From: an uncultured virus (IMG/VR IMGVR_UViG_3300033148_004307)
Lineage: Duplodnaviria > Heunggongvirae > Uroviricota > Caudoviricetes
IMG/VR virus record: IMGVR_UViG_3300033148_004307
Length of the DNA stretch: 64,000 nucleotides
Direction: 5' to 3' (one strand)
Shown: positions 10,170-53,266 of the stretch, in pieces
Layout: every line of letters begins with the position of its first letter
Numbering within the stretch: the first letter of the stretch is position 1
The notes under the pieces: model-generated
Told to the model about the DNA's origin: nothing
Databases searched by the model: none
The model's input: the letters and a program-made list of their open reading frames with translations, nothing else
Translations under genes and position numbers: made by a program

Positions 10170-10598
10170 ATGGATGAAAATAAATTAAAGGAAATTATCT
10201 ATAGAAGATACAATCAACAAAACAAAAGAGCAGAATCATTAGGTTTAAATTCAATTCCTCTCAGAGAATATGAAAAAATATTCCAAGAATCAATAGACAT
10301 TGGATTCTTATGTTGTTATTGTAGTATAAAATTAAATTTGTATAGTAAATATCCATATAAAGATACACCATCAATTGACCATAAAATCCCTCTAACAAAT
10401 GATGGCAAACATGAATTAGAAAATATGGTATTATGTTGTTATAAATGCAATATCATCAAAAGCACTATGACCGATAAAACATATAAAGAATTATTGAATA
10501 GAATTAATTATGATTTAGGATTTCTTAATACGATATTCAATGAGTTGGATAAAGGAAGAAAAGCTAGTTTAATTAGTAGGCATAATTCGGTTAAATAA
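10170..10598 (+). CDS. HNH endonuclease
   Basis: CxYC...SIDHKIP...N...CCYKCN-x2-K. Confidence 0.85.
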   Translation: MDENKLKEIIYRRYNQQNKRAESLGLNSIPLREYEKIFQESIDIGFLCCYCSIKLNLYSKYPYKDTPSIDHKIPLTNDGKHELENMVLCCYKCNIIKSTMTDKTYKELLNRINYDLGFLNTIFNELDKGRKASLISRHNSVK

Positions 10599-10813: not shown

Positions 10814-11521
10814 ATAGATAAAGAAACAAAAAAGGATAAAGGATTCTGGGTACAATATCATATTGAACGTAGAAATTCCGATAAAAAAGAATTTGGATAC
10901 AATTATTATCTATATGAAGATGGCTATAAAGAAGATGATGAAGAATCATTTAGATTGGAAGCTCAATCATGGGCAGAAAATGAAAAACAAATGTGGGCTA
11001 AAGATAGATATAGTTATGGATATGAAATTATAAAAGAAGCCCCAATTGATTATATTAATGAGAAAATAAAGGACACAATAAACGAATTAAAATATTGGTT
11101 ATCTTTCAATAAAAGTAATGAATATTATATGTTAAAATCCGATTTAGAACACTACGATAGAGAGAAAAAAAGAAAAGAATCATTTAAAGAAATTGAAAGT
11201 TGTAAATTTACAGATGAAGAATTAATGAAATTTGAAGATAATGACTATCCTGTGGGTAAGGATTGTTATCTTTGTATTTATGTAAATTGCCAACATAATA
11301 AAAAAAATTATAGAGAAAGATTTTCAGGTAAACATAAACACGATTCAGAATTTGATATAAATATGCCTGTATTAACATACAATGGGTGGGTACTTGGTAA
11401 TGAATGGGGTATATATTCAGCATATTGCGAAGAAACAAAACGATGGCTATCATTTGAATCAGAGGTTGAAATGGTATTCACAATAGACCTTTATATTCTT
11501 GCAGAAACAATAAGTGATTAA
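10814..11521 (+). CDS. Hypothetical protein; frame extends to an ATA at the canonical start position
   Basis: GGTGGTAAT-ATA at 10805-10816 is in frame with track ORF 10955-11521. Confidence 0.6.
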   Translation: MDKETKKDKGFWVQYHIERRNSDKKEFGYNYYLYEDGYKEDDEESFRLEAQSWAENEKQMWAKDRYSYGYEIIKEAPIDYINEKIKDTINELKYWLSFNKSNEYYMLKSDLEHYDREKKRKESFKEIESCKFTDEELMKFEDNDYPVGKDCYLCIYVNCQHNKKNYRERFSGKHKHDSEFDINMPVLTYNGWVLGNEWGIYSAYCEETKRWLSFESEVEMVFTIDLYILAETISD

Positions 11522-11536
11522 TTTAGGAGAAATAAT

Positions 11537-12040
11537 ATGCCGAAAGAACCACTAATGGAAGATGAATTTCAAAGAATCCTAAATTCATGCGAAAATGAAT
11601 TTGAAAAACAAACAATATTGATTTTAAGATACACAGGGATGCACATATCAGTTATTTGTGATAAAGAAAATGAATACGATATAGCATTTAAAGGTAAATA
11701 TATACATTGGTATAGACCAAAAACACATAATTTAGTAAGAATCCCAATACACCCAATCATTAAGCCATTCATCAAAGAATATTTTGAAAATGAGAGGGCT
11801 ATGTATAGAAATTATTACAATCGAATGATAACAGAAATAGGGAAAAGAGCAGAAATAGAAGGATTATCCCCTATGAGTTTTAGACATACTTTCGGAGTGG
11901 CATTATTGGATGAAGGGTACACAATGACTCAAGTACAAACAATGATGGGAGTAACAGATTTACAAGTGATTACAAGATATACTCAATACTCTGATAGACA
12001 AATGGAAGCAAAATGGAAAGATACAGGATGGTTAGAATGA
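11537..12040 (+). CDS. Tyrosine recombinase-like protein, catalytic domain only, atypical active site
   Basis: LRYTGMHISV, RPKT, MSFRHTFG, VQTMMGV-x5-ITRY. Confidence 0.85.
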   Translation: MPKEPLMEDEFQRILNSCENEFEKQTILILRYTGMHISVICDKENEYDIAFKGKYIHWYRPKTHNLVRIPIHPIIKPFIKEYFENERAMYRNYYNRMITEIGKRAEIEGLSPMSFRHTFGVALLDEGYTMTQVQTMMGVTDLQVITRYTQYSDRQMEAKWKDTGWLE

Positions 12041-26845: not shown

Positions 26846-27022
26846 ATGAATCAAGTATTAATAGAATTGAAATTAAATATAGAATCCAATAGGAAAGCTA
26901 CAGGGAATTGTCCTTTTTGTAATATTATAATAAAACCAGATGATTTTAAAGATGATAAGAGTAAGAGGGAATTTGAACAATCAGGATTATGTCAATCATG
27001 TCAGGATGGATTTTTCGATTAG
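26846..27022 (+). CDS. Zinc-finger microprotein (58 aa, absent from ORF track)
   Basis: CPFC...FKDDKSKREFEQSGLCQSCQD. Confidence 0.7.
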   Translation: MNQVLIELKLNIESNRKATGNCPFCNIIIKPDDFKDDKSKREFEQSGLCQSCQDGFFD

Positions 27023-27023
27023 T

Positions 27024-27668
27024 ATGATAAAAGTTTATTTGTTTAAGGATGTAAAGAATAAGACTAGAATACCCCATAATACACTCGTAGAGCTAGTTTT
27101 ATGGTCTAGGAATAGGAATGTATTGATAAAATATCGTGGAGAAACAATCAAGTCTATGGGCTATCATTTGAGAAAACCAACATTCAAAGAGGTTAAAGCA
27201 GAAATCATAGAACATTTATCATATAAAACTAGAAATATCTCTCCTACTGATTTAAAAATACAATTAAATATATATGGATTTGTAAATATCTGCTTGGGGT
27301 GTGGTGTAGAATTAACAGGAAGAAAAACCTCATGGTGTGGTTCAGATTGTTCAAGTGAATTTACAAATAAGTATATGTGGAATCTTCTAAGAGAAAAATT
27401 GCTAAAGAAAGCAAATCATAAATGTCAATCATGTAATAAAGGAAGTAGTGAGGGGGTTTATTTACATGAAGTACATCATATACACCCAATTGCATTAGGT
27501 GGAAATCCATTTGATGAAGAAAATCTAATAGTATTATGTCCTGATTGTCATTTAGATGCACATGGAGAATTAGGGGTTACTATGAAGGATTATAGGGATA
27601 AAGAATATTATATCAATTATGCAAAGGAACGTAGTATAAAAACACTAGATAAATTCATGGAGTTTTAA
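27024..27668 (+). CDS. HNH endonuclease with extra zinc finger
   Basis: CQSC...EVHHIHPIALGG...ENLIVLCPDCH; start moved behind upstream stop. Confidence 0.85.
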   Translation: MIKVYLFKDVKNKTRIPHNTLVELVLWSRNRNVLIKYRGETIKSMGYHLRKPTFKEVKAEIIEHLSYKTRNISPTDLKIQLNIYGFVNICLGCGVELTGRKTSWCGSDCSSEFTNKYMWNLLREKLLKKANHKCQSCNKGSSEGVYLHEVHHIHPIALGGNPFDEENLIVLCPDCHLDAHGELGVTMKDYRDKEYYINYAKERSIKTLDKFMEF

Positions 27669-31908: not shown

Positions 31909-32119
31909 GCACTACAATAAAATAACCTTCCCTACAAATCTCTACTCGTAAATAACAATCTAAATAGCCATAAGATAATATTTATATCATTCAGGATACC
32001 GAATTATAATGTATACATCATCCCCTCATGGTGTATACATCAAACCCCCTTTTTTTTGTTATCAAAACTATAGTAAAATACCAAATAAGCCGAATAATGA
32101 TTTTAGACAAGCACAAACT

Positions 32120-32278
32120 ACGCAAAAAATTTTTAAGCGAAGCCTAAAATTTTTTTGCGTTTAATCCATTTTTTCCGACACGCATGGCGTTTTTGCCATG
32201 CGTGTTATTTTTTTATTTATGTGCCTTTAGGCACACCTCTAAGGGCATTACGGTATTTTCGATGCCTATCGAAAATAC
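32120..32278. repeat. Four consecutive hairpins
   Basis: 32120-32160, ACACGCATGGC/GCCATGCGTGT 32178-32205, GTGCCT/AGGCAC 32221-32234, GTATTTTCGAT/ATCGAAAATAC 32253-32278. Confidence 0.85.
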
Positions 32279-32502
32279 AAGAAAAAACGTAGATGTGAAA
32301 TTTTAGTGAAAATTGAACAAAAAAATCCCCGAAAAAAAATTGCCCTAAAACTGTTAGTTTATAGTCGTGAAATCGTCAGTTTATTGGTAAAAACTGTTAG
32401 TTTATATGCCTGTTTTGTTCGGATAAAACCTGAATATTGTTAGTTAAAAAAAAGTTAATGTTAGGCTAAAAATAAAATGCCCTGACCCAGATATAATTTT
32501 TT

Positions 32503-32881
32503 TGTATACGAATTTACCTTTAATTACGAGAAAGCTCATGTATACAAATATTTTGACCTATGAAAATGCCTGTAGCTCTTAGGAAAATTCGATTTTAGGG
32601 TACTATTGGCTTATAGAATCGCAAAGCCTTACAATTCAGGCAGATGTAAGCCCTACCCTTCTTTTCATCTATTATGGTCTTAAATTTGCTCTTTAAATCT
32701 CTATAATAAATAGGATACAATCTCTCTTTACAAATTCTGCATTTTGGTTTATAATTGTTCATCAAAATCAAGAGTAAATAATCTTGATGGTTTATATATA
32801 TTTGTATACGAATTTACCTTTAATTACTAGAAAGCTCATGTATACGAATTTACCTTTAATTACTAGAAAGCTCATGTATAC
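32503..32881. repeat. 36-bp direct repeat TGTATACGAATTTACCTTTAATTACKAGAAAGCTCA x3
   Basis: Units at 32503, 32803, 32839, each followed by TGTATAC. Confidence 0.9.
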
Positions 32882-33378
32882 AAAAAATAATTGAGAATAC
32901 AAATGCCGTAAGCTCTTAGAACATTTCATTTAATGGCATAAGGGAATTTTTTGAGGTTAAAATGTAGAAAAAAGTAGGGGCTACTGATGGTAACGAGAAT
33001 TGGCAATCTCACATGAAGCAACCCCTAATTAATATTATAATTTTAAAAATATAAAAAGATTTTGTTTATTTATTGTAAAATTAAGATAAAAAGGATGGGT
33101 GGAATTGAAAAAAATTAACACCAATCAAGTTTTGACTCTCCACCCAATAATTATTTGTATATAAGTTCTGGTTTATATATCTTCCTGTGTTACTGAAATA
33201 ACTCCTTAGACCCCCAGATGATATAGTGTGTATTATTAATTTAGTTACAAATGTAACTCTAATGTAACTTTTCGGAAAAAAAAATTCGGAAAAAAGCCAA
33301 AAAAAGCCCCAAAAATGCAAATATTTGTATACGAAAATGGTTCAAATTTCAATTATATTTTTTAAAAATAAATATTAT

Positions 33379-33779
33379 CTGTTCGGTCTTATATAATTCT
33401 GGTTACTGTTCGGTCTTTTTACTGTTCGGTCTTTTTTTACTGTTCGGTCTTTTTAGCATCTGGATAACTGTTCGGTCTTTTTTACTGTTCGGTCTTTTTT
33501 TACTGTTCGGTCTTTTTAGCATCTGGGTACTGTTCGGTCTTTTAGCATCTGGATAACTGTTCGGTCTTTTTTACTGTTCGGTCTTTTTACTGTTCGGTCT
33601 TTTTTACTGTTCGGTCTTTTTAGCATCTGGGTACTGTTCGGTCTTTTTAGCATCTGGATAACTGTTCGGTCTTTTTTACTGTTCGGTCTTTTTACTGTTC
33701 GGTCTTTTTAGCATCTGGATAACTGTTCGGTCTTTTTTACTGTTCGGTCTTTTTACTGTTCGGTCTTTTTACTGTTCGG
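33379..33779. repeat. Iteron-like array: 20 copies of ACTGTTCGGTCT(T)n with six AGCATCTGG(AT/GT)A inserts
   Basis: Directly visible; ends about 60 bp before the Rep-like start. Confidence 0.95.
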
Positions 33780-33842
33780 AATCAAAAAATTATATATAGT
33801 AGAAAAAATATTGCAAAATTAACACCAATTGAGTGATGTGCG

Positions 33843-35432
33843 ATGATTGATGGTAATGAAATATTGGCAGATAAAGAAATTTATCTTGGTTGCCCTGTCC
33901 AGCATAAATTACATTTTCATAAATTCATTGAGAATAAAGATTTGTATTATCAGATGATTAAAAAATACATATCTTGTAAAGATGAACCACATTATGAAGA
34001 TGGACAAAAGAATGGTTATGAATTTTATGTAGGGGAACACAAATTCGTTTTCAAATCTAAGAAAGGAATATCCAATAGGAAATATGGAAATGGAAAATTA
34101 ATGCAGAATTTTGAATACACTTTCAAGTTAGAATATCCTGAAGGATTACCCAAATCAGAAACATTAGAAAAAGCATACATCTTATTTAAGCCATATAGTG
34201 AAGATTTCTATTATAAGGATGGTAAACCTCTTAAATTACCTTATGGAGAGGGAGTTGGGATTGAAATAGTTACTACATACAAAGAAATGAAGGATGTAGA
34301 TGTATTAGTGAGAAAAATACTAGAACATCTACAATTAGAGGAATTTCTTGAGTATGAAAATGTCGAATCTGGAGTAATAAGACAATGTGAATATTATGTT
34401 AGAGTGGATGATGAATATGAAGCTAGATTAGGAAATGTATTAAGAAAAATTGATGAAACAATATGCCTCTCAACCGATGTTTTTAGAAAAGTAACTGAAA
34501 AGAGAAATGGCACTAAATACAATTTATATTCCATCAGGTCTAATCAATTCAATGAATTAGGATTCTTCAATAATGATGGAAAAATAAGATATGGAATAAA
34601 ATTATATAGATTAAAGGATGATAGCAAATTAGAAGAAAATGACCCAATTAGACAACCTAAATTAGAAATCTATCTCGATGAACAGAAAAAAGATGATTTT
34701 CTTAAACTTGAATATCCCAGATTAGATGATTTCAGCAAATTGAAAGAAACAATGTTTCAAATATTGGGCAATATTCTACTATGGGCATCTGTACTTGAAG
34801 ATGGTTTGGTTCAAGATAAATTTTACGACCCAAAGAATGATGATAAATTCCTAGTACAACCCAAAAAAAATGCCTTTCAAAAGCTAAAGAATTTCTACGA
34901 GAGAGCAGAACCAAAATTAAGAAGTGAGTTGAGTCAGTTAGTATCAAAGGTTGATTATCTTAGAGCATTGGTACACGATGAAAATATAAATTATAACAAA
35001 TTAATGGAAAAAACAGGATTGGGTTATGAACGAATAAGAAAAATGACCAAAGAATTAGAAGATGATGGAATACTGAGCAGATTTAAAACCTCAGAAACCA
35101 AGATAGTATTCAAGAATAAAAAAGCCTACAAAATGATGAAAACTATGGTTAGACAATTGGATGCTGACCACAAAGAAAATAAACATACGAAAAAGAAACG
35201 ATTAATGACTAGAATCTCTAGCAGATTAAAAGCATGGAGAAAGAGAGTAGAAAGCAAAGAAGTTCCATTAGATAGTAAATTAGCTAAAATCCTATACAGA
35301 TTCAAAATATTAAAAGAAACAGATGTTGATTTCATAAATATAACGACTTTTAAAACAATGAAACAAAAACCACCACCTGAGTATTACAAGACAATGTTTT
35401 CTGATGGGCAGTTATCCGAAGGGTTTATATAG
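33843..35432 (+). CDS. Putative replication initiator with C-terminal wHTH, similar to the Rep-like family of betapleolipoviruses/haloarchaeal plasmids
   Basis: Ordered motifs GEGV, IRQCEYYVRVD, FRKV, GIKLY, DPIRQPKL, LVQDKFY, then wHTH (TGLGYERIRKMTKELEDDGIL); adjacent iterons. Confidence 0.65.
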   Translation: MIDGNEILADKEIYLGCPVQHKLHFHKFIENKDLYYQMIKKYISCKDEPHYEDGQKNGYEFYVGEHKFVFKSKKGISNRKYGNGKLMQNFEYTFKLEYPEGLPKSETLEKAYILFKPYSEDFYYKDGKPLKLPYGEGVGIEIVTTYKEMKDVDVLVRKILEHLQLEEFLEYENVESGVIRQCEYYVRVDDEYEARLGNVLRKIDETICLSTDVFRKVTEKRNGTKYNLYSIRSNQFNELGFFNNDGKIRYGIKLYRLKDDSKLEENDPIRQPKLEIYLDEQKKDDFLKLEYPRLDDFSKLKETMFQILGNILLWASVLEDGLVQDKFYDPKNDDKFLVQPKKNAFQKLKNFYERAEPKLRSELSQLVSKVDYLRALVHDENINYNKLMEKTGLGYERIRKMTKELEDDGILSRFKTSETKIVFKNKKAYKMMKTMVRQLDADHKENKHTKKKRLMTRISSRLKAWRKRVESKEVPLDSKLAKILYRFKILKETDVDFINITTFKTMKQKPPPEYYKTMFSDGQLSEGFI

Positions 35433-35492
35433 TTTCTGAGTATATACTAAGTATATACAAAGTAGTAACTTTGGTTAAATTTCGGTGGTAAT

Positions 35493-52308: not shown

Positions 52309-52587
52309 ATGAGTAATGGCTATAAAAGAACAATAAGGCATATAAATATTCTAATGTCAGATGGAAAAATCAGGCATACAATGGAGATTTACGACTACTT
52401 AAAAGTGAATACAAAATATGGGGCTACGACTCAATCATTAGCTAATATATTAGCCAAATTAATGTTTAAAGATATTGAGAAGGTAGGCACTACAAAAGTA
52501 AAATCTTTCTATGGTGGTAATGGACTATTGGCATTATGGCAAAAGAGAGGAGTGGATAAATATGGGTCAAAGAAAAAAGATTCCTGA
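52309..52587 (+). CDS. DUF3860-like paralog
   Basis: TMEIYDYL-x3-TKYGATTQSLANIL...IEKVG. Confidence 0.55.
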   Translation: MSNGYKRTIRHINILMSDGKIRHTMEIYDYLKVNTKYGATTQSLANILAKLMFKDIEKVGTTKVKSFYGGNGLLALWQKRGVDKYGSKKKDS

Positions 52588-53266
52588 TTCTACAATTATT
52601 AAAATAATGAAAGATATTGATGAAGGAAAATTCAAACTAAGAGTGAAGGCTAGAGAATTAGAAATAGCCCCTAGCTCACTCCATGCTAGAATCAAGAAAC
52701 TCAGAAATCAACAATCCATACATAATGATATATTAACAATTCCAGAAGTTAAAAAGACCGAACAGTTGAAAAGACCGAACACTATCACACCAGAAGTTAA
52801 AAAGACCGAACAGTTGAAAAGACCAAACACTATCACACCAGATGCTAAAAAGACAGAACAGTTAAAAAGACCGAACATTAACAAGATAAAAAACAAATCA
52901 AAAATTAAGAAGAAAAGACCTACAACTATGGAAGGAAGAAATCTTTGTCAGGATATGAATATCTTGGTAATGAGAAATAGAAATAAATACTGCCCTACAG
53001 AATTATTCCATTCTATTCATTGGACTTATACAGGAAAATCTATAAGAATTAAAAGAAATCAATTATTGAAAAATTTGATTGAATTATTCAAAGAAGATGA
53101 TAATGATAAGAGAAAATTCCCTTATGAATTTTATGCTTATACTTATTGGATTCTATCAGGAAAACCTTATAAATATGATGAATCGAAAATAATCAAAAGT
53201 ATTATTACATTATTAAAGAAACAAATCAAAATGTCAATAGTCAGGGGTGGGTATAAGAATGGATAA
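52562..53266 (+). CDS. HTH DNA-binding protein with three internal 16-aa repeats
   Basis: LRVKARELEIAPSSLHARIKK HTH; PEVKKTEQLKRPNTIT x3; start after GAGGAG. Confidence 0.75.
   Translation: MGQRKKIPDSTIIKIMKDIDEGKFKLRVKARELEIAPSSLHARIKKLRNQQSIHNDILTIPEVKKTEQLKRPNTITPEVKKTEQLKRPNTITPDAKKTEQLKRPNINKIKNKSKIKKKRPTTMEGRNLCQDMNILVMRNRNKYCPTELFHSIHWTYTGKSIRIKRNQLLKNLIELFKEDDNDKRKFPYEFYAYTYWILSGKPYKYDESKIIKSIITLLKKQIKMSIVRGGYKNG
52742..52878 (-). repeat. Inverted, in-frame copy of the iteron array (3 x 48 bp, six cores)
   Basis: AAAAAGACCGAACAGT and CCAGATGCTAAAAAGAC are reverse complements of units in 33379-33779. Confidence 0.9.

Follow-up and report, generated by a model that had tools for sequence, protein, structure and literature searches.

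Why would the DNA of a repeat array beside a putative replication initiator gene reappear, in inverted orientation, inside the coding sequence of another gene about 19 kb away? This question arises from a 64,000-nucleotide stretch of DNA from an uncultured virus, hereafter the window, which belongs to an element of at least 78 kb, with at least 14 kb lying outside the window. The same putative recognition sequence (core TGTTCGG, here CTGTTCGGTCTTT) is found at two loci of the element, and this homology is not due to chance. Allowing up to one mismatch, AAAGACCGAACAG has 24 matches in the window, compared to 0.04 expected and a top count of one in 100 shuffles. Nineteen of these matches are on the minus strand at 33379-33768, and five are on the plus strand at 52753-52878, within the open reading frame (ORF) 52562-53266, which encodes protein P0001. 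The 7-mer TGTTCGG alone has 26 matches against 1.44 expected, 20 of which are located in the main array, four in the P0001 gene on the opposite strand, and two as singletons at 32416 and 43437. In addition, the insert CCAGATGCT has seven exact copies, six in the main array (minus strand) and one in the P0001 gene (52838, plus strand); the remaining 17 of the 24 rows from this search are scattered and carry one mismatch.

Local alignment of the P0001 gene against the reverse-complemented main array extends over about 145 bp, indicating that the match comprises the two-core unit and the insert, not the core alone. The two loci have in common an identical 17-mer that includes the insert, and their longest inverted-orientation match reaches up to 41 bp at three mismatches. 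The in-gene copy is composed of three 48-bp tandem units (52742..52885, plus strand; Tandem Repeats Finder: 52742-52877, 2.8 copies, 93% matches), each of which, when reverse-complemented, corresponds to a long unit and a short unit side by side in the main array and contains two cores in different frames, encoding the peptides KKTEQ and KRPN. The six in-gene AAAGACCGAACAG cores (plus strand) start at 52753, 52770, 52801, 52818, 52849 and 52866, with 0, 1, 0, 2, 1 and 1 mismatches, respectively, the two-mismatch core spanning 52818-52830. Core spacing in the gene is 17/31, compared to 16-18 and 27-28 in the main array; as 17 and 31 sum to 48, the repeat stays in frame. The reverse-complemented main array has 12, 5 and 4 stops in the three frames, whereas the in-gene copy is open, with TTG or TTA where the main array has TAA. 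The initial annotation had described these repeats as reverse complements of iteron units, insert included, adjusted to stay in frame as dual-coded DNA, and both parts of that description agree with the counts, the alignment and the spacing. The distance from the end of the main array (33779) to the first in-gene repeat (52742) is 18.96 kb.

The main array (33379..33779, plus strand) consists of 20 directly repeated TGTTCGG cores, 19 of which match CTGTTCGGTCTTT with at most one mismatch. The cores are spaced by 16-18 bp, or by 27-28 bp in the units with the insert AGCATCTGG (six inserts). Tandem Repeats Finder reported a 16-bp-period array at 33403-33779 with 24.7 copies and higher-order periods of 27, 44, 61 and 105. 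A TATA-like block, TTATATAATTCTGG (33387..33404, plus strand), separates the first core from the others; it was read from the sequence as a candidate promoter element and is also present among the cores of a related locus, L121. A proximal TATA-like box (33786..33799, plus strand), located right after the last core and about 45 bp before the Rep start codon, is likewise a candidate promoter element, with the same layout in L121. Moreover, an 8-bp stem, TGGGTGGA / TCCACCCA, closing a loop of about 33 nt (33096..33146, plus strand) lies 230 bp upstream of the main array, and is kept in L121 along with the block CTTAGNCCCCCAGATG. The gene-sized ORFs on both sides are all on the plus strand, and the GC skew has no turning point anywhere in the window, its lack of an origin signal being attributable to all genes lying on one strand. 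Rfam gave no match at gathering scores, and no tRNA was found in the window.

The array lies directly upstream of the gene for a 529-aa protein (33843..35432, plus strand) with a DUF7845 domain and a probable central winged HTH. The DUF7845 match (PF25227) has an E-value of 1.3e-17 and 64.7 bits against a cut-off of 27, covering profile positions 7-314 of 315, and HTH_24 is weakly matched at residues 373-411 (E 0.0038, 17.2 bits, below its cut-off of 21.9). Two PHROG "transcriptional regulator" profiles also extend over residues 64-472, with E-values of 2.1e-29 (phrog_15150) and 1.2e-16. Its domain matches place the protein in the Rep-Arvir family, which comprises rolling-circle initiators of archaea; it has the DUF7845 domain, and probably the MarR-like winged HTH, that make up the domain pair of RepSNJ2 of pleolipovirus SNJ2. 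As the array adjoins this initiator gene, "origin" in the "origin iterons" of the initial annotation is a reasonable working label, though unproven. Rep-Arvir proteins are characterised by a conserved catalytic tyrosine and conserved acidic residues; several tyrosines of Rep (Y250, Y255, Y277 and Y291) are invariant among four sequences. Pleolipovirus genomes are far smaller than 78 kb, and the present element thus far exceeds them in size.

The main text of the SNJ2 report describes the DUF7845-plus-winged-HTH family as a replication initiator by experiment in that virus, and its authors found members in archaea only (PMC13107129). The SNJ2 origin described there is an inverted repeat with a conserved hairpin downstream of rep, whereas here an array of direct repeats upstream of rep stands out; neither "iteron" nor "repeats" appears as a word in that main text (PMC13107129). 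Downstream of rep in the window, the gap to the next ORF is only 60 bp and contains a 6-bp stem, CAAAGT / ACTTTG, which is also found downstream of the L121 rep (z -2.2 and -2.1). This small stem and the hairpins at 32120-32250 and 33096-33146 are candidates for a nick site.

A search of metagenome contigs with Rep yielded one relative, L121, and none was found among viral contigs, genome contigs or phages. The L121 Rep is 47% identical to that of the window. L121 has four TGTTCGG cores, compared to 0.09 expected, all upstream of its Rep gene and on the strand that carries them in the window. Three of the four are arranged in tandem and the remaining one is just 5' of a TATA-like box; three lie upstream of the conserved TATA-like block. 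Their flanks, GTGTTCGGGTGT, differ from those of the window. As the cores also cluster upstream of a Rep of 47% identity, the cluster-plus-Rep module is conserved, with different flanks. A distant haloarchaeal plasmid gene matched by Rep (23% identity) lies inside an operon without an upstream gap and was uninformative. Pattern scans of viral contigs gave no match for two window-type cores, 117 loci for three TGTTCGG cores with free gaps (none of the 117 encoding an HTH or Rep relative by tblastn), and 120 single chance matches for the 14-mer alone, which are uninformative.

P0001 (52562..53266, plus strand) has 234 residues, and its start at 52562 is backed by homologs that open with the same residues. 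It comprises an N-terminal three-helix domain (residues 9-55), a linker (residues 56-120) and a helical C-terminal domain (residues 123-228). In the predicted structure, modelled from six sequences, the pLDDT is below 50 for residues 56-117 and about 87 in the flanking domains, and the repeat-coded part corresponds to a predicted disordered linker between the two domains. The three-helix domain of the model is probably an HTH, as the initial annotation had it, and its matches are weak: VIA-align of residues 1-60 found generic three-helix DNA-binding domains with Z-scores of 5-6.6, which the tool itself describes as common, and the HTH_Tnp_1 match has an E-value of 0.02, below its cut-off. VIA-align found no convincing match for the C-terminal domain, and Foldseek against the PDB gave no match to P0001 at E ≤ 0.001. 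Comparison with known initiators gave weak HTH rows only in Pfam (E up to 10) and nothing specific in PDB sequences or folds, an absent row in these searches being compatible with a relation to lambda O or gp38.

Following the last in-gene core is an A-rich lysine-coding run (52879..52920, plus strand), with an A+T content of 78-80% compared to the window mean of 71%, and an A fraction of 0.675 that ranks about 70th among 63,961 40-bp segments. There are 28 segments of at least 95% A+T, none beside the in-gene cores. The run is at best a weak candidate for an unwinding element, as its A+T content is unremarkable. A 792-aa protein with a primase-like C-terminal part (phrog_19458, E 1.5e-18) is encoded 1.3 kb downstream of the P0001 gene (54550..56928, plus strand).

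Homologs of P0001 were compared by back-translation, which measures the compatibility of a peptide with the motif and not the homolog DNA; no DNA relatives of the family were found in viral, metagenome or genome contigs, nor in phage records by tblastn with P0001, P0008 and P0009. All family members have linker repeats rich in P/K/T/E/D, in linkers of about 35 to 65 residues. Two of the six homologs, P0002 and P0008, appear to keep the DNA core without the peptide, read in all three frames. In P0002 (48% identical), which a 23,492-bp contig carries, probably together with P0003, a stretch of 14 linker residues contains three sites that could encode ACCGAACA, one per frame, with an inferred core spacing of 13 then 19, compared to 19 then 13 on the other strand of the L121 array. 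P0008 (33% identical) has six sites fitting the L121-type 10-mer, a number that none of 2000 shuffles reaches (shuffle mean 0.04) in a test that is post hoc, the motif having been matched by eye beforehand. It has no site for the window-type 10-mer; P0001 and P0002 have three and one window-type sites, respectively, and no L121-type site. The P0008 peptide PNTRTPEH, present twice, is identical to what the 8-mer CCGAACAC encodes when repeated three times in tandem, and only one of 5000 shuffles has any site fitting two tandem CCGAACAC copies. P0006 has two sites, which is not significant (377 of 2000 shuffles reach this number), and P0009, P0010 and P0011, with KPD repeats in a single frame, have no compatible site. 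A further protein, P0007 (1072 residues), with nine stretches matching the linker part of the profile, was dropped as a low-complexity repeat match.

Altogether, the results for P0002 and P0008 suggest that the core is kept and the peptide is not, and that the flank bases track the type of the Rep-adjacent iterons. The initial annotation would have been contradicted by homologs conserving the peptide rather than the DNA repeat, or lacking co-variation with their origin arrays. At the peptide level, P0002 and P0008 speak for the DNA, whereas three homologs have no signal and one is ambiguous. As for co-variation, P0008 fits, by back-translation, the iteron variant upstream of the related Rep gene in L121; P0008 (on a contig of 2,272 bp) and L121 are both short contigs recorded from the same two kinds of source, and may come from different elements.

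We propose, with roughly even confidence, that the in-gene repeats form a second binding array, dual-coded, which is occupied by the same protein as the array next to Rep. At the first locus, about 20 direct repeats would serve as binding sites between two TATA-like boxes, directly upstream of the Rep-Arvir rolling-circle initiator gene. At the second, six cores in the opposite orientation would be written into the disordered linker of a probable HTH protein, in a module that also contains the primase-like gene, and would form a DNA-level binding array for the same sequence-specific protein. An unconstrained linker peptide would allow the in-gene array to be tolerated, and use of the DNA would explain why it is kept. 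The most likely binder would be the HTH protein itself, by analogy with lambda O and SPP1 gp38 on their own genes, and the winged HTH of Rep is an alternative candidate. The in-gene array would most likely act as an auxiliary site that pairs or competes with the Rep-adjacent array, thereby setting initiation or rep-promoter activity and feeding back on transcription of the HTH gene. Coding may dictate its inverted orientation: on the complement strand, all three frames give hydrophilic K/T/E/Q/R/P/N/D peptides, compared to F/G/L/C/S/V on the array strand. Several observations weigh against this proposal, namely the three KPD-type homologs and the ambiguous one among the six, the downstream position and different make-up of the SNJ2 origin, the unremarkable A+T-rich stretch beside the in-gene cores, the weak matches and six-sequence model behind the HTH assignment, and the lack of a GC-skew turning point. 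Moreover, the 93% likeness of the three 48-bp copies indicates that they expanded in tandem recently, possibly through neutral slippage that the linker tolerated.

In the handcuffing and titration loci of plasmids (P1 incA, R6K gamma-ori), copy number is controlled through additional clusters of initiator-binding repeats outside the origin; those clusters are non-coding, whereas the additional cluster here is translated. In geminiviruses, Rep iterons between the TATA box and the rep start couple origin recognition to autoregulation. Lambda O has the same order of N-terminal domain, linker and C-terminal domain as P0001. In ori-lambda, the initiator-binding repeats lie in the coding sequence of gene O itself, followed by an A+T-rich stretch (PMC5043065), an order that the P0001 gene, with its weak candidate for an unwinding element, may share. 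Compared to lambda, in which the iterons are inverted-repeat sites for dimers in a single cluster, the repeats here are direct, are read in two frames and recur elsewhere in a far larger array; P0001 matches no lambda O-type family in Pfam. In phage SPP1, gp38 binds direct repeats at two sites about 13 kb apart, oriL, which lies within gene 38, and the intergenic oriR (PMC6316719). SPP1 and the window alike have a pair of widely separated clusters built from one direct repeat, with an intergenic cluster and another within the gene of a replication protein that binds DNA (here putatively so). The window differs in that no sequence or fold relation to gp38 was found for P0001, the host domain is archaeal, the intergenic cluster adjoins a rolling-circle-type initiator gene, the copies number 20 and 6, and binding is putative. 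The arrangement may be an archaeal, Rep-Arvir-linked variant of one known from lambda O and SPP1 gp38.

Other explanations fit parts of these data. Iteron DNA may have entered the linker by gene conversion or template switching with the main array, grown by slippage, and persisted without function because a disordered linker tolerates almost any hydrophilic peptide. We consider this unlikely, though the spacer insert within the homology fits copying better than convergence, the 48-bp copies are highly alike, the linker varies in length among homologs, and the KPD-type homologs have ordinary single-frame peptide repeats. The core apparently recurs at the same place in homologs of 33-48% identity, in other spacings and frames and with flanks fitting the iteron type of the related Rep locus, so that an array without function would need either long maintenance or repeated re-acquisition. 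It is quite unlikely that the in-gene cluster is itself a working origin of the lambda-O or SPP1-oriL type, fired by the HTH protein with the primase-like protein and leaving the Rep-adjacent array as a second origin or control site. The repeats do lie inside the coding sequence of a putative, weakly supported DNA-binding protein, between its N- and C-terminal domains and followed by the A-rich run, the primase-like gene is nearby, and lambda O and SPP1 provide precedents. However, the Pfam, PDB sequence and fold searches relate P0001 to no known initiator, the stretch beside the cores reaches only 78-80% A+T, and the recognised initiator, Rep-Arvir, is at the other array. Of the 88 ORFs of at least 90 aa, 72 were scanned (the remainder being 12 minus-strand ORFs and four plus-strand ORFs of 91-96 aa), and none of these was recognised as a helicase or loader. 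The same scan, with at least 14 kb of the element lying outside the window, recognised no partition NTPase of ParA or ParM type, which speaks against the partition site considered in the initial annotation. A small terminase with a pac site in its own gene was also rejected, since no packaging or capsid family was found among the ORFs scanned, the neighbours are genes of replication and nucleotide metabolism, and the small-terminase row among the fold matches shows an rmsd of 9.4.

In pT181-type plasmids, rep is under the control of antisense RNAs, and repeats in a long rep leader might similarly pair in trans with the linker region of the HTH mRNA, controlling rep or the HTH protein. Both loci are on the transcribed strand, the gene-sized ORFs being all plus, both the window and L121 have TATA-like boxes preceding the array, and such pairing would give the inverted orientation a purpose. 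The predicted duplex between the array strand and the gene segment has an energy of -166.5 kcal/mol, compared to a mean of -30.7 and a best of -59.3 for 149 other 412-nt segments, but this merely restates the reverse complementarity. As array transcription is conjectural, three of the four L121 cores lie upstream of the conserved TATA-like block, and tandem direct repeats beside a rep gene are typically protein-binding sites, we regard such RNA-level control as improbable. Similarly small is the probability of the broader idea that the arrays are nucleic-acid partners, either with the rep leader (about 20 repeats) pairing with the HTH mRNA, or with the arrays annealing as a duplex of about 140 bp on the displaced rolling-circle single strand. 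If true, either would couple Rep-Arvir initiation to HTH-protein expression or to lagging-strand priming near the primase gene, and a protein-coding linker would double as the trans-acting antisense element of the replicon. Recombination between the inverted repeats, flipping the 19 kb between them as the initial annotation suggested, is very improbable: despite inverted matches of up to 41 bp, the exchange would break the HTH gene within its linker and leave 19 kb of genes running opposite to the others, with which they are now co-oriented, and the sole integrase-like ORF (11537-12040) is 21 kb from the array. Finally, a repeat at the peptide level only, with coincidental similarity to the array or a selected K/P/T/E-rich linker motif, is scarcely credible. 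The P/K/T/E/D-rich linker repeats of all family members favour it, whereas the 24 AAAGACCGAACAG matches against 0.04 expected contradict it, as do two cores per unit in different frames with different peptides and the identical 17-mer with its insert.

To our knowledge, very few origins are known for large archaeal mobile elements. Rep-Arvir initiators were described only in 2026, with an origin defined in one haloarchaeal virus as a hairpin and an inverted repeat; the window and one related contig have a different cis layout, with clusters of TGTTCGG cores around the rep promoter. In a small unannotated protein family, the linkers seem to carry the same DNA sites in whatever frame the spacing dictates. 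The two short arrays and two candidate binders are testable reagents for studying how the replication of large mobile elements in archaea is controlled. Should the sites prove functional, they would represent the archaeal equivalent of what lambda O and SPP1 gp38 do, and a clean natural example of a gene in which selection on the DNA overrides conservation of the peptide.

Tandem repeat analysis (Tandem Repeats Finder) revealed an array with a 16-bp period at 33403-33779 (24.7 copies; higher-order periods of 27, 44, 61 and 105) and a 48-bp repeat at 52742-52877 (2.8 copies, 93% matches), the latter within the gene of a 234-residue protein, P0001 (52562-53266). With at most one mismatch, the 13-mer AAAGACCGAACAG occurs 24 times in the window, compared to 0.04 expected from shuffles. 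Of these copies, 19 fall within 33379-33768 (minus strand) and five within 52753-52878 (plus strand); a sixth in-gene copy has two mismatches. Its core TGTTCGG is found 26 times against 1.44 expected: the array accounts for 20 copies and the gene, on the opposite strand, for four; the remaining two, at 32416 and 43437, stand alone and do not exceed the number expected by chance. The 9-mer spacer CCAGATGCT, termed the insert in the initial annotation, has seven exact matches; the array holds six of them and the gene one, on the opposite strand. When the gene segment is aligned locally with the reverse complement of the array, the match extends over ~145 bp. Each 48-bp gene unit is the counterpart of one long and one short array unit, stretched to a multiple of three and carrying TTG or TTA at positions where TAA stands in the array. 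Stops number 12, 5 and 4 in the three frames of the reverse-complemented array, and the gene copy is open. The motif counts, alignment and open frame thus bear out the claim that the in-gene repeats are reverse-complement iteron units kept in frame, homologous to the Rep-adjacent array of the window down to the spacer insert. As the component units are not multiples of three (17/31 bp in P0001, an inferred 13/19 and 8 in homologs), the sequences indicate that the repeat must have originated at the DNA level.

The array forms the 3′ end of a 1.9-kb gap (31.9-33.84 kb) that is free of gene-sized plus-strand ORFs. All gene-sized ORFs of the window are on the plus strand, the G+C content is ~29%, and the GC skew does not turn at any point along the window. 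Directly downstream of the array, a 529-residue ORF (33843-35432) matches almost the full length of the Pfam DUF7845 profile (E 1.3e-17; 64.7 bits, cut-off 27), in addition to a weak winged-HTH match and two PHROG families annotated as transcriptional regulators. The pairing of DUF7845 with a winged HTH domain defines Rep-Arvir, rolling-circle initiators of archaeal viruses and plasmids that the authors place in archaea only (PMC13107129, 2026). In the main text of that paper, from which the words “iteron” and “repeats” are absent, replication is shown to require RepSNJ2 as well as two elements that follow its gene, an inverted repeat and a hairpin. By contrast, the window has a direct-repeat array upstream of rep. 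The label “origin” therefore has a basis in that the array adjoins an initiator gene, but the layout is unlike that described for SNJ2.

The gap holds further features. Where it begins, three strong hairpins follow in succession (32110-32259; -32.7 kcal/mol folded as DNA, z -6.7, equalled by none of 200 shuffles), one of which is a G+C-rich stem of 12-13 bp followed by a T run (32177-32206); they may terminate the upstream operon or serve as a rolling-circle nick site or single-strand origin. A 36-bp unit starting with TGTATAC is present in three copies (32496-32549 and 32796-32885), namely a 100% identical tandem pair and one copy 300 bp upstream, and TGTATAC recurs in other short repeats at 32010-32053 and 33321-33335; these constitute a second repeat system in this control region. 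A 58-residue ORF with two CxxC pairs (32595-32771, minus strand), inside the otherwise non-coding gap, would be the sole minus-strand gene.

Protein searches matched the Rep to three relatives, P0003 (79% identity; 23,492-bp contig), P0004 (90%, partial) and P0005 (47%; 2,718-bp contig L121), and Rep loci were compared at the DNA level between the window and L121. In L121, TGTTCGG occurs four times where 0.09 would be expected, each time ahead of the Rep gene and on its coding strand. Three of these cores are in tandem as GTGTTCGGGT(G/A)T with spacings of 19 and 13, and the fourth lies immediately 5′ of a TATA-like box ~40 bp ahead of the start codon. Both upstream regions share a TTATATAATTCTGG block amid the cores, a block CTTAGNCCCCCAGATG (window 33205-33222; L121 152-168) and an 8-bp stem with a ~33-nt loop (window 33096-33146; L121 53-100). 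The stem and CTTAGNCCCCCAGATG, conserved though the two Reps are only 47% identical, may represent a cis-acting element or the 5′ terminus of an RNA. Core number differs (4 in L121 versus 20 in the window), as do the flanking bases. Given the common cores and upstream features, a TGTTCGG cluster around the rep promoter is a conserved trait of this Rep lineage. Conservation extends to the short stretch behind the Rep gene (window 35433-35492; L121 2015-2086), which combines a TATA-like box with an 11-bp tandem repeat and a 6-bp stem (CAAAGT/ACTTTG) and lies where the published description puts the SNJ2 origin relative to its rep gene.

The 234-residue protein matches no Pfam or PHROG family at normal thresholds; for its first 60 residues the best row is HTH_Tnp_1 (E 0.02, with the search threshold relaxed to E 10). 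An alignment of six sequences gave an AlphaFold2 model that consists of three helices (residues 9-55, pLDDT ~87), a linker (residues 56-120, mostly pLDDT <50) and a helical C-terminal domain (residues 123-228). The linker corresponds exactly to the repeat-coded residues and the lysine-rich run after them. Foldseek against the PDB found no match at E ≤ 0.001. VIA-align over 48,161 chains superimposed residues 1-60 of the model on many three-helix DNA-binding domains, including an archaeal transcription factor, sigma region 4 and the StbA DNA-binding domain, with Z of 5-6.6, a range that the tool calls common, so the protein is only probably an HTH protein. A 792-residue primase-like protein is encoded 1.3 kb downstream. 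In the alignment, by eye, a C-terminal motif (aromatic-W-x-L-T/S-G-K ... I-x-L-L-K) occurs twice in P0001 (residues 147-178 and 190-224) and in its homolog P0002 and once in the shorter homologs, which suggests an internal duplication.

An exhaustive profile search of 1.84 billion representatives returned seven proteins at E ≤ 0.001. The 1,072-residue repeat protein P0007 was dropped, as it matched the linker part of the profile only, and P0011 was added by a word-based search; the family as counted comprises P0001 and six others (P0002, P0006, P0008, P0009, P0010 and P0011). All seven are built alike, with conservation in the N-terminal domain and in a C-terminal motif and, between them, a variable linker that bears the repeats. 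The linker peptide repeat is not conserved, being KKTEQKDRTPKKIPN in P0002, KPNTRTPEHD(I/T)RT (twice) in P0008, NPEQK/NPEVK in P0006, and of KPD type in P0009, P0010 and P0011.

Back-translation counted peptide positions able to encode a motif in any frame against shuffles of the same protein, and thus reports compatibility rather than DNA sequence. In P0008, six sites spread over all three frames could encode ACCCGAACAC, which is the L121 repeat in reverse complement (shuffle mean 0.04; six reached in 0 of 2000), a match seen by eye before the shuffle test; no site could encode the window-type GACCGAACAG. The PNTRTPEH of P0008, present twice, is the exact translation of three tandem 8-mers CCGAACAC; two in tandem were compatible anywhere in one of 5000 shuffles. 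The P0008 linker thus fits the iteron variant beside the related Rep gene, although a common element of origin for L121 and P0008 is not established. Window-type sites number three in P0001 and one in P0002, and L121-type sites are absent from both. Within 14 residues of its linker, P0002 could encode ACCGAACA at three sites, each in a frame of its own, and their inferred spacing of 13 then 19 mirrors the 19 then 13 of L121. The two sites in P0006 are not significant (reached by 377 of 2000 shuffles), and P0009, P0010 and P0011 have none. For the opposite orientation, TGTTCGG on the coding strand, none of the seven proteins has a compatible linker site. On whether homologs keep the peptide but not the DNA repeat, the family is therefore divided: two of six (P0002 and P0008) show the signature of a DNA repeat in shifting frames, P0006 is ambiguous, and P0009, P0010 and P0011 give no signal. 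Each of the two repeat types belongs to one of two clades, which also differ in the putative recognition helix (SLH versus SL[A/S]D), a co-variation that would amount to one event at most.

Neutral spread of iteron DNA into a tolerant linker is a serious rival explanation, favored by the 93% likeness of the three 48-bp copies and by the half of the family with ordinary peptide repeats only. The in-gene core nevertheless appears to occupy an equivalent position in proteins that share no more than 33-48% identity, and its flanks apparently track the local iteron type, which argues that it is maintained, or continually homogenised against the main array. Pairing at the RNA level, between a putative rep leader and the HTH mRNA, is possible in that both loci are on the transcribed strand; the duplex of array strand and gene segment (-166.5 kcal/mol versus a mean of -30.7 for 149 control segments), however, restates their complementarity. 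For inversion of the 19-kb segment, as the initial annotation had also suggested, the opposite orientation of the repeats is the sole point in favor. The inverted orientation is perhaps the sole one that a linker permits: on the complement strand all frames read K/T/E/Q/R/P/N/D, and the array strand reads F/G/L/C/S/V, a peptide that appears in a spurious minus-strand ORF (52708-52896).

As to a partition site, no partition ATPase is found among the 72 ORFs scanned (of 88; 12 minus-strand ORFs, and four plus-strand ORFs of 91-96 residues, were omitted). The window lacks 14 kb or more of the element, as the longest contig seen with the 234-residue protein measures 78,015 bp. As capsid, terminase and portal families are likewise absent from these 72 ORFs, the element could be either a virus or a plasmid. 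It encodes two HNH endonucleases (10170-10598 and 26940-27668) and a 167-residue tyrosine-recombinase catalytic domain (11537-12040; Phage_integrase, E 1.9e-13) preceded by a separate 188-residue ORF without family match (10955-11521), which together may form a split or two-part integrase.

In the simplest functional reading, whichever protein binds the main array would also bind the in-gene copy, making it a second cluster of binding sites. By analogy with lambda O and SPP1 gp38, we favor the 234-residue protein as the binder, with the winged HTH of Rep as the alternative. As described in the sources, ori-lambda lies inside gene O and is bound by O protein (PMC5043065), and SPP1 gp38 binds the oriL direct repeats in its own gene and the oriR repeats ~13 kb off, where bound oriR is proposed to stall forks (PMC6316719). 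The role would be control, through pairing or competition with the Rep-adjacent array and autoregulation, rather than origin firing, because the recognised initiator adjoins the other array and the A+T content beside the in-gene cores is ordinary. The interpretation in the initial annotation is partly supported: the dual-coded homologous DNA and the Rep-adjacent array stand, and binding and origin remain proposals. Altogether, repeats for a replication protein written in a gene, with a second array elsewhere, are of a known kind, here in an archaeal mobile element with Rep-Arvir; the small family of the 234-residue protein is previously undescribed, and the finding is of moderate to high relevance for researchers of archaeal replicons.
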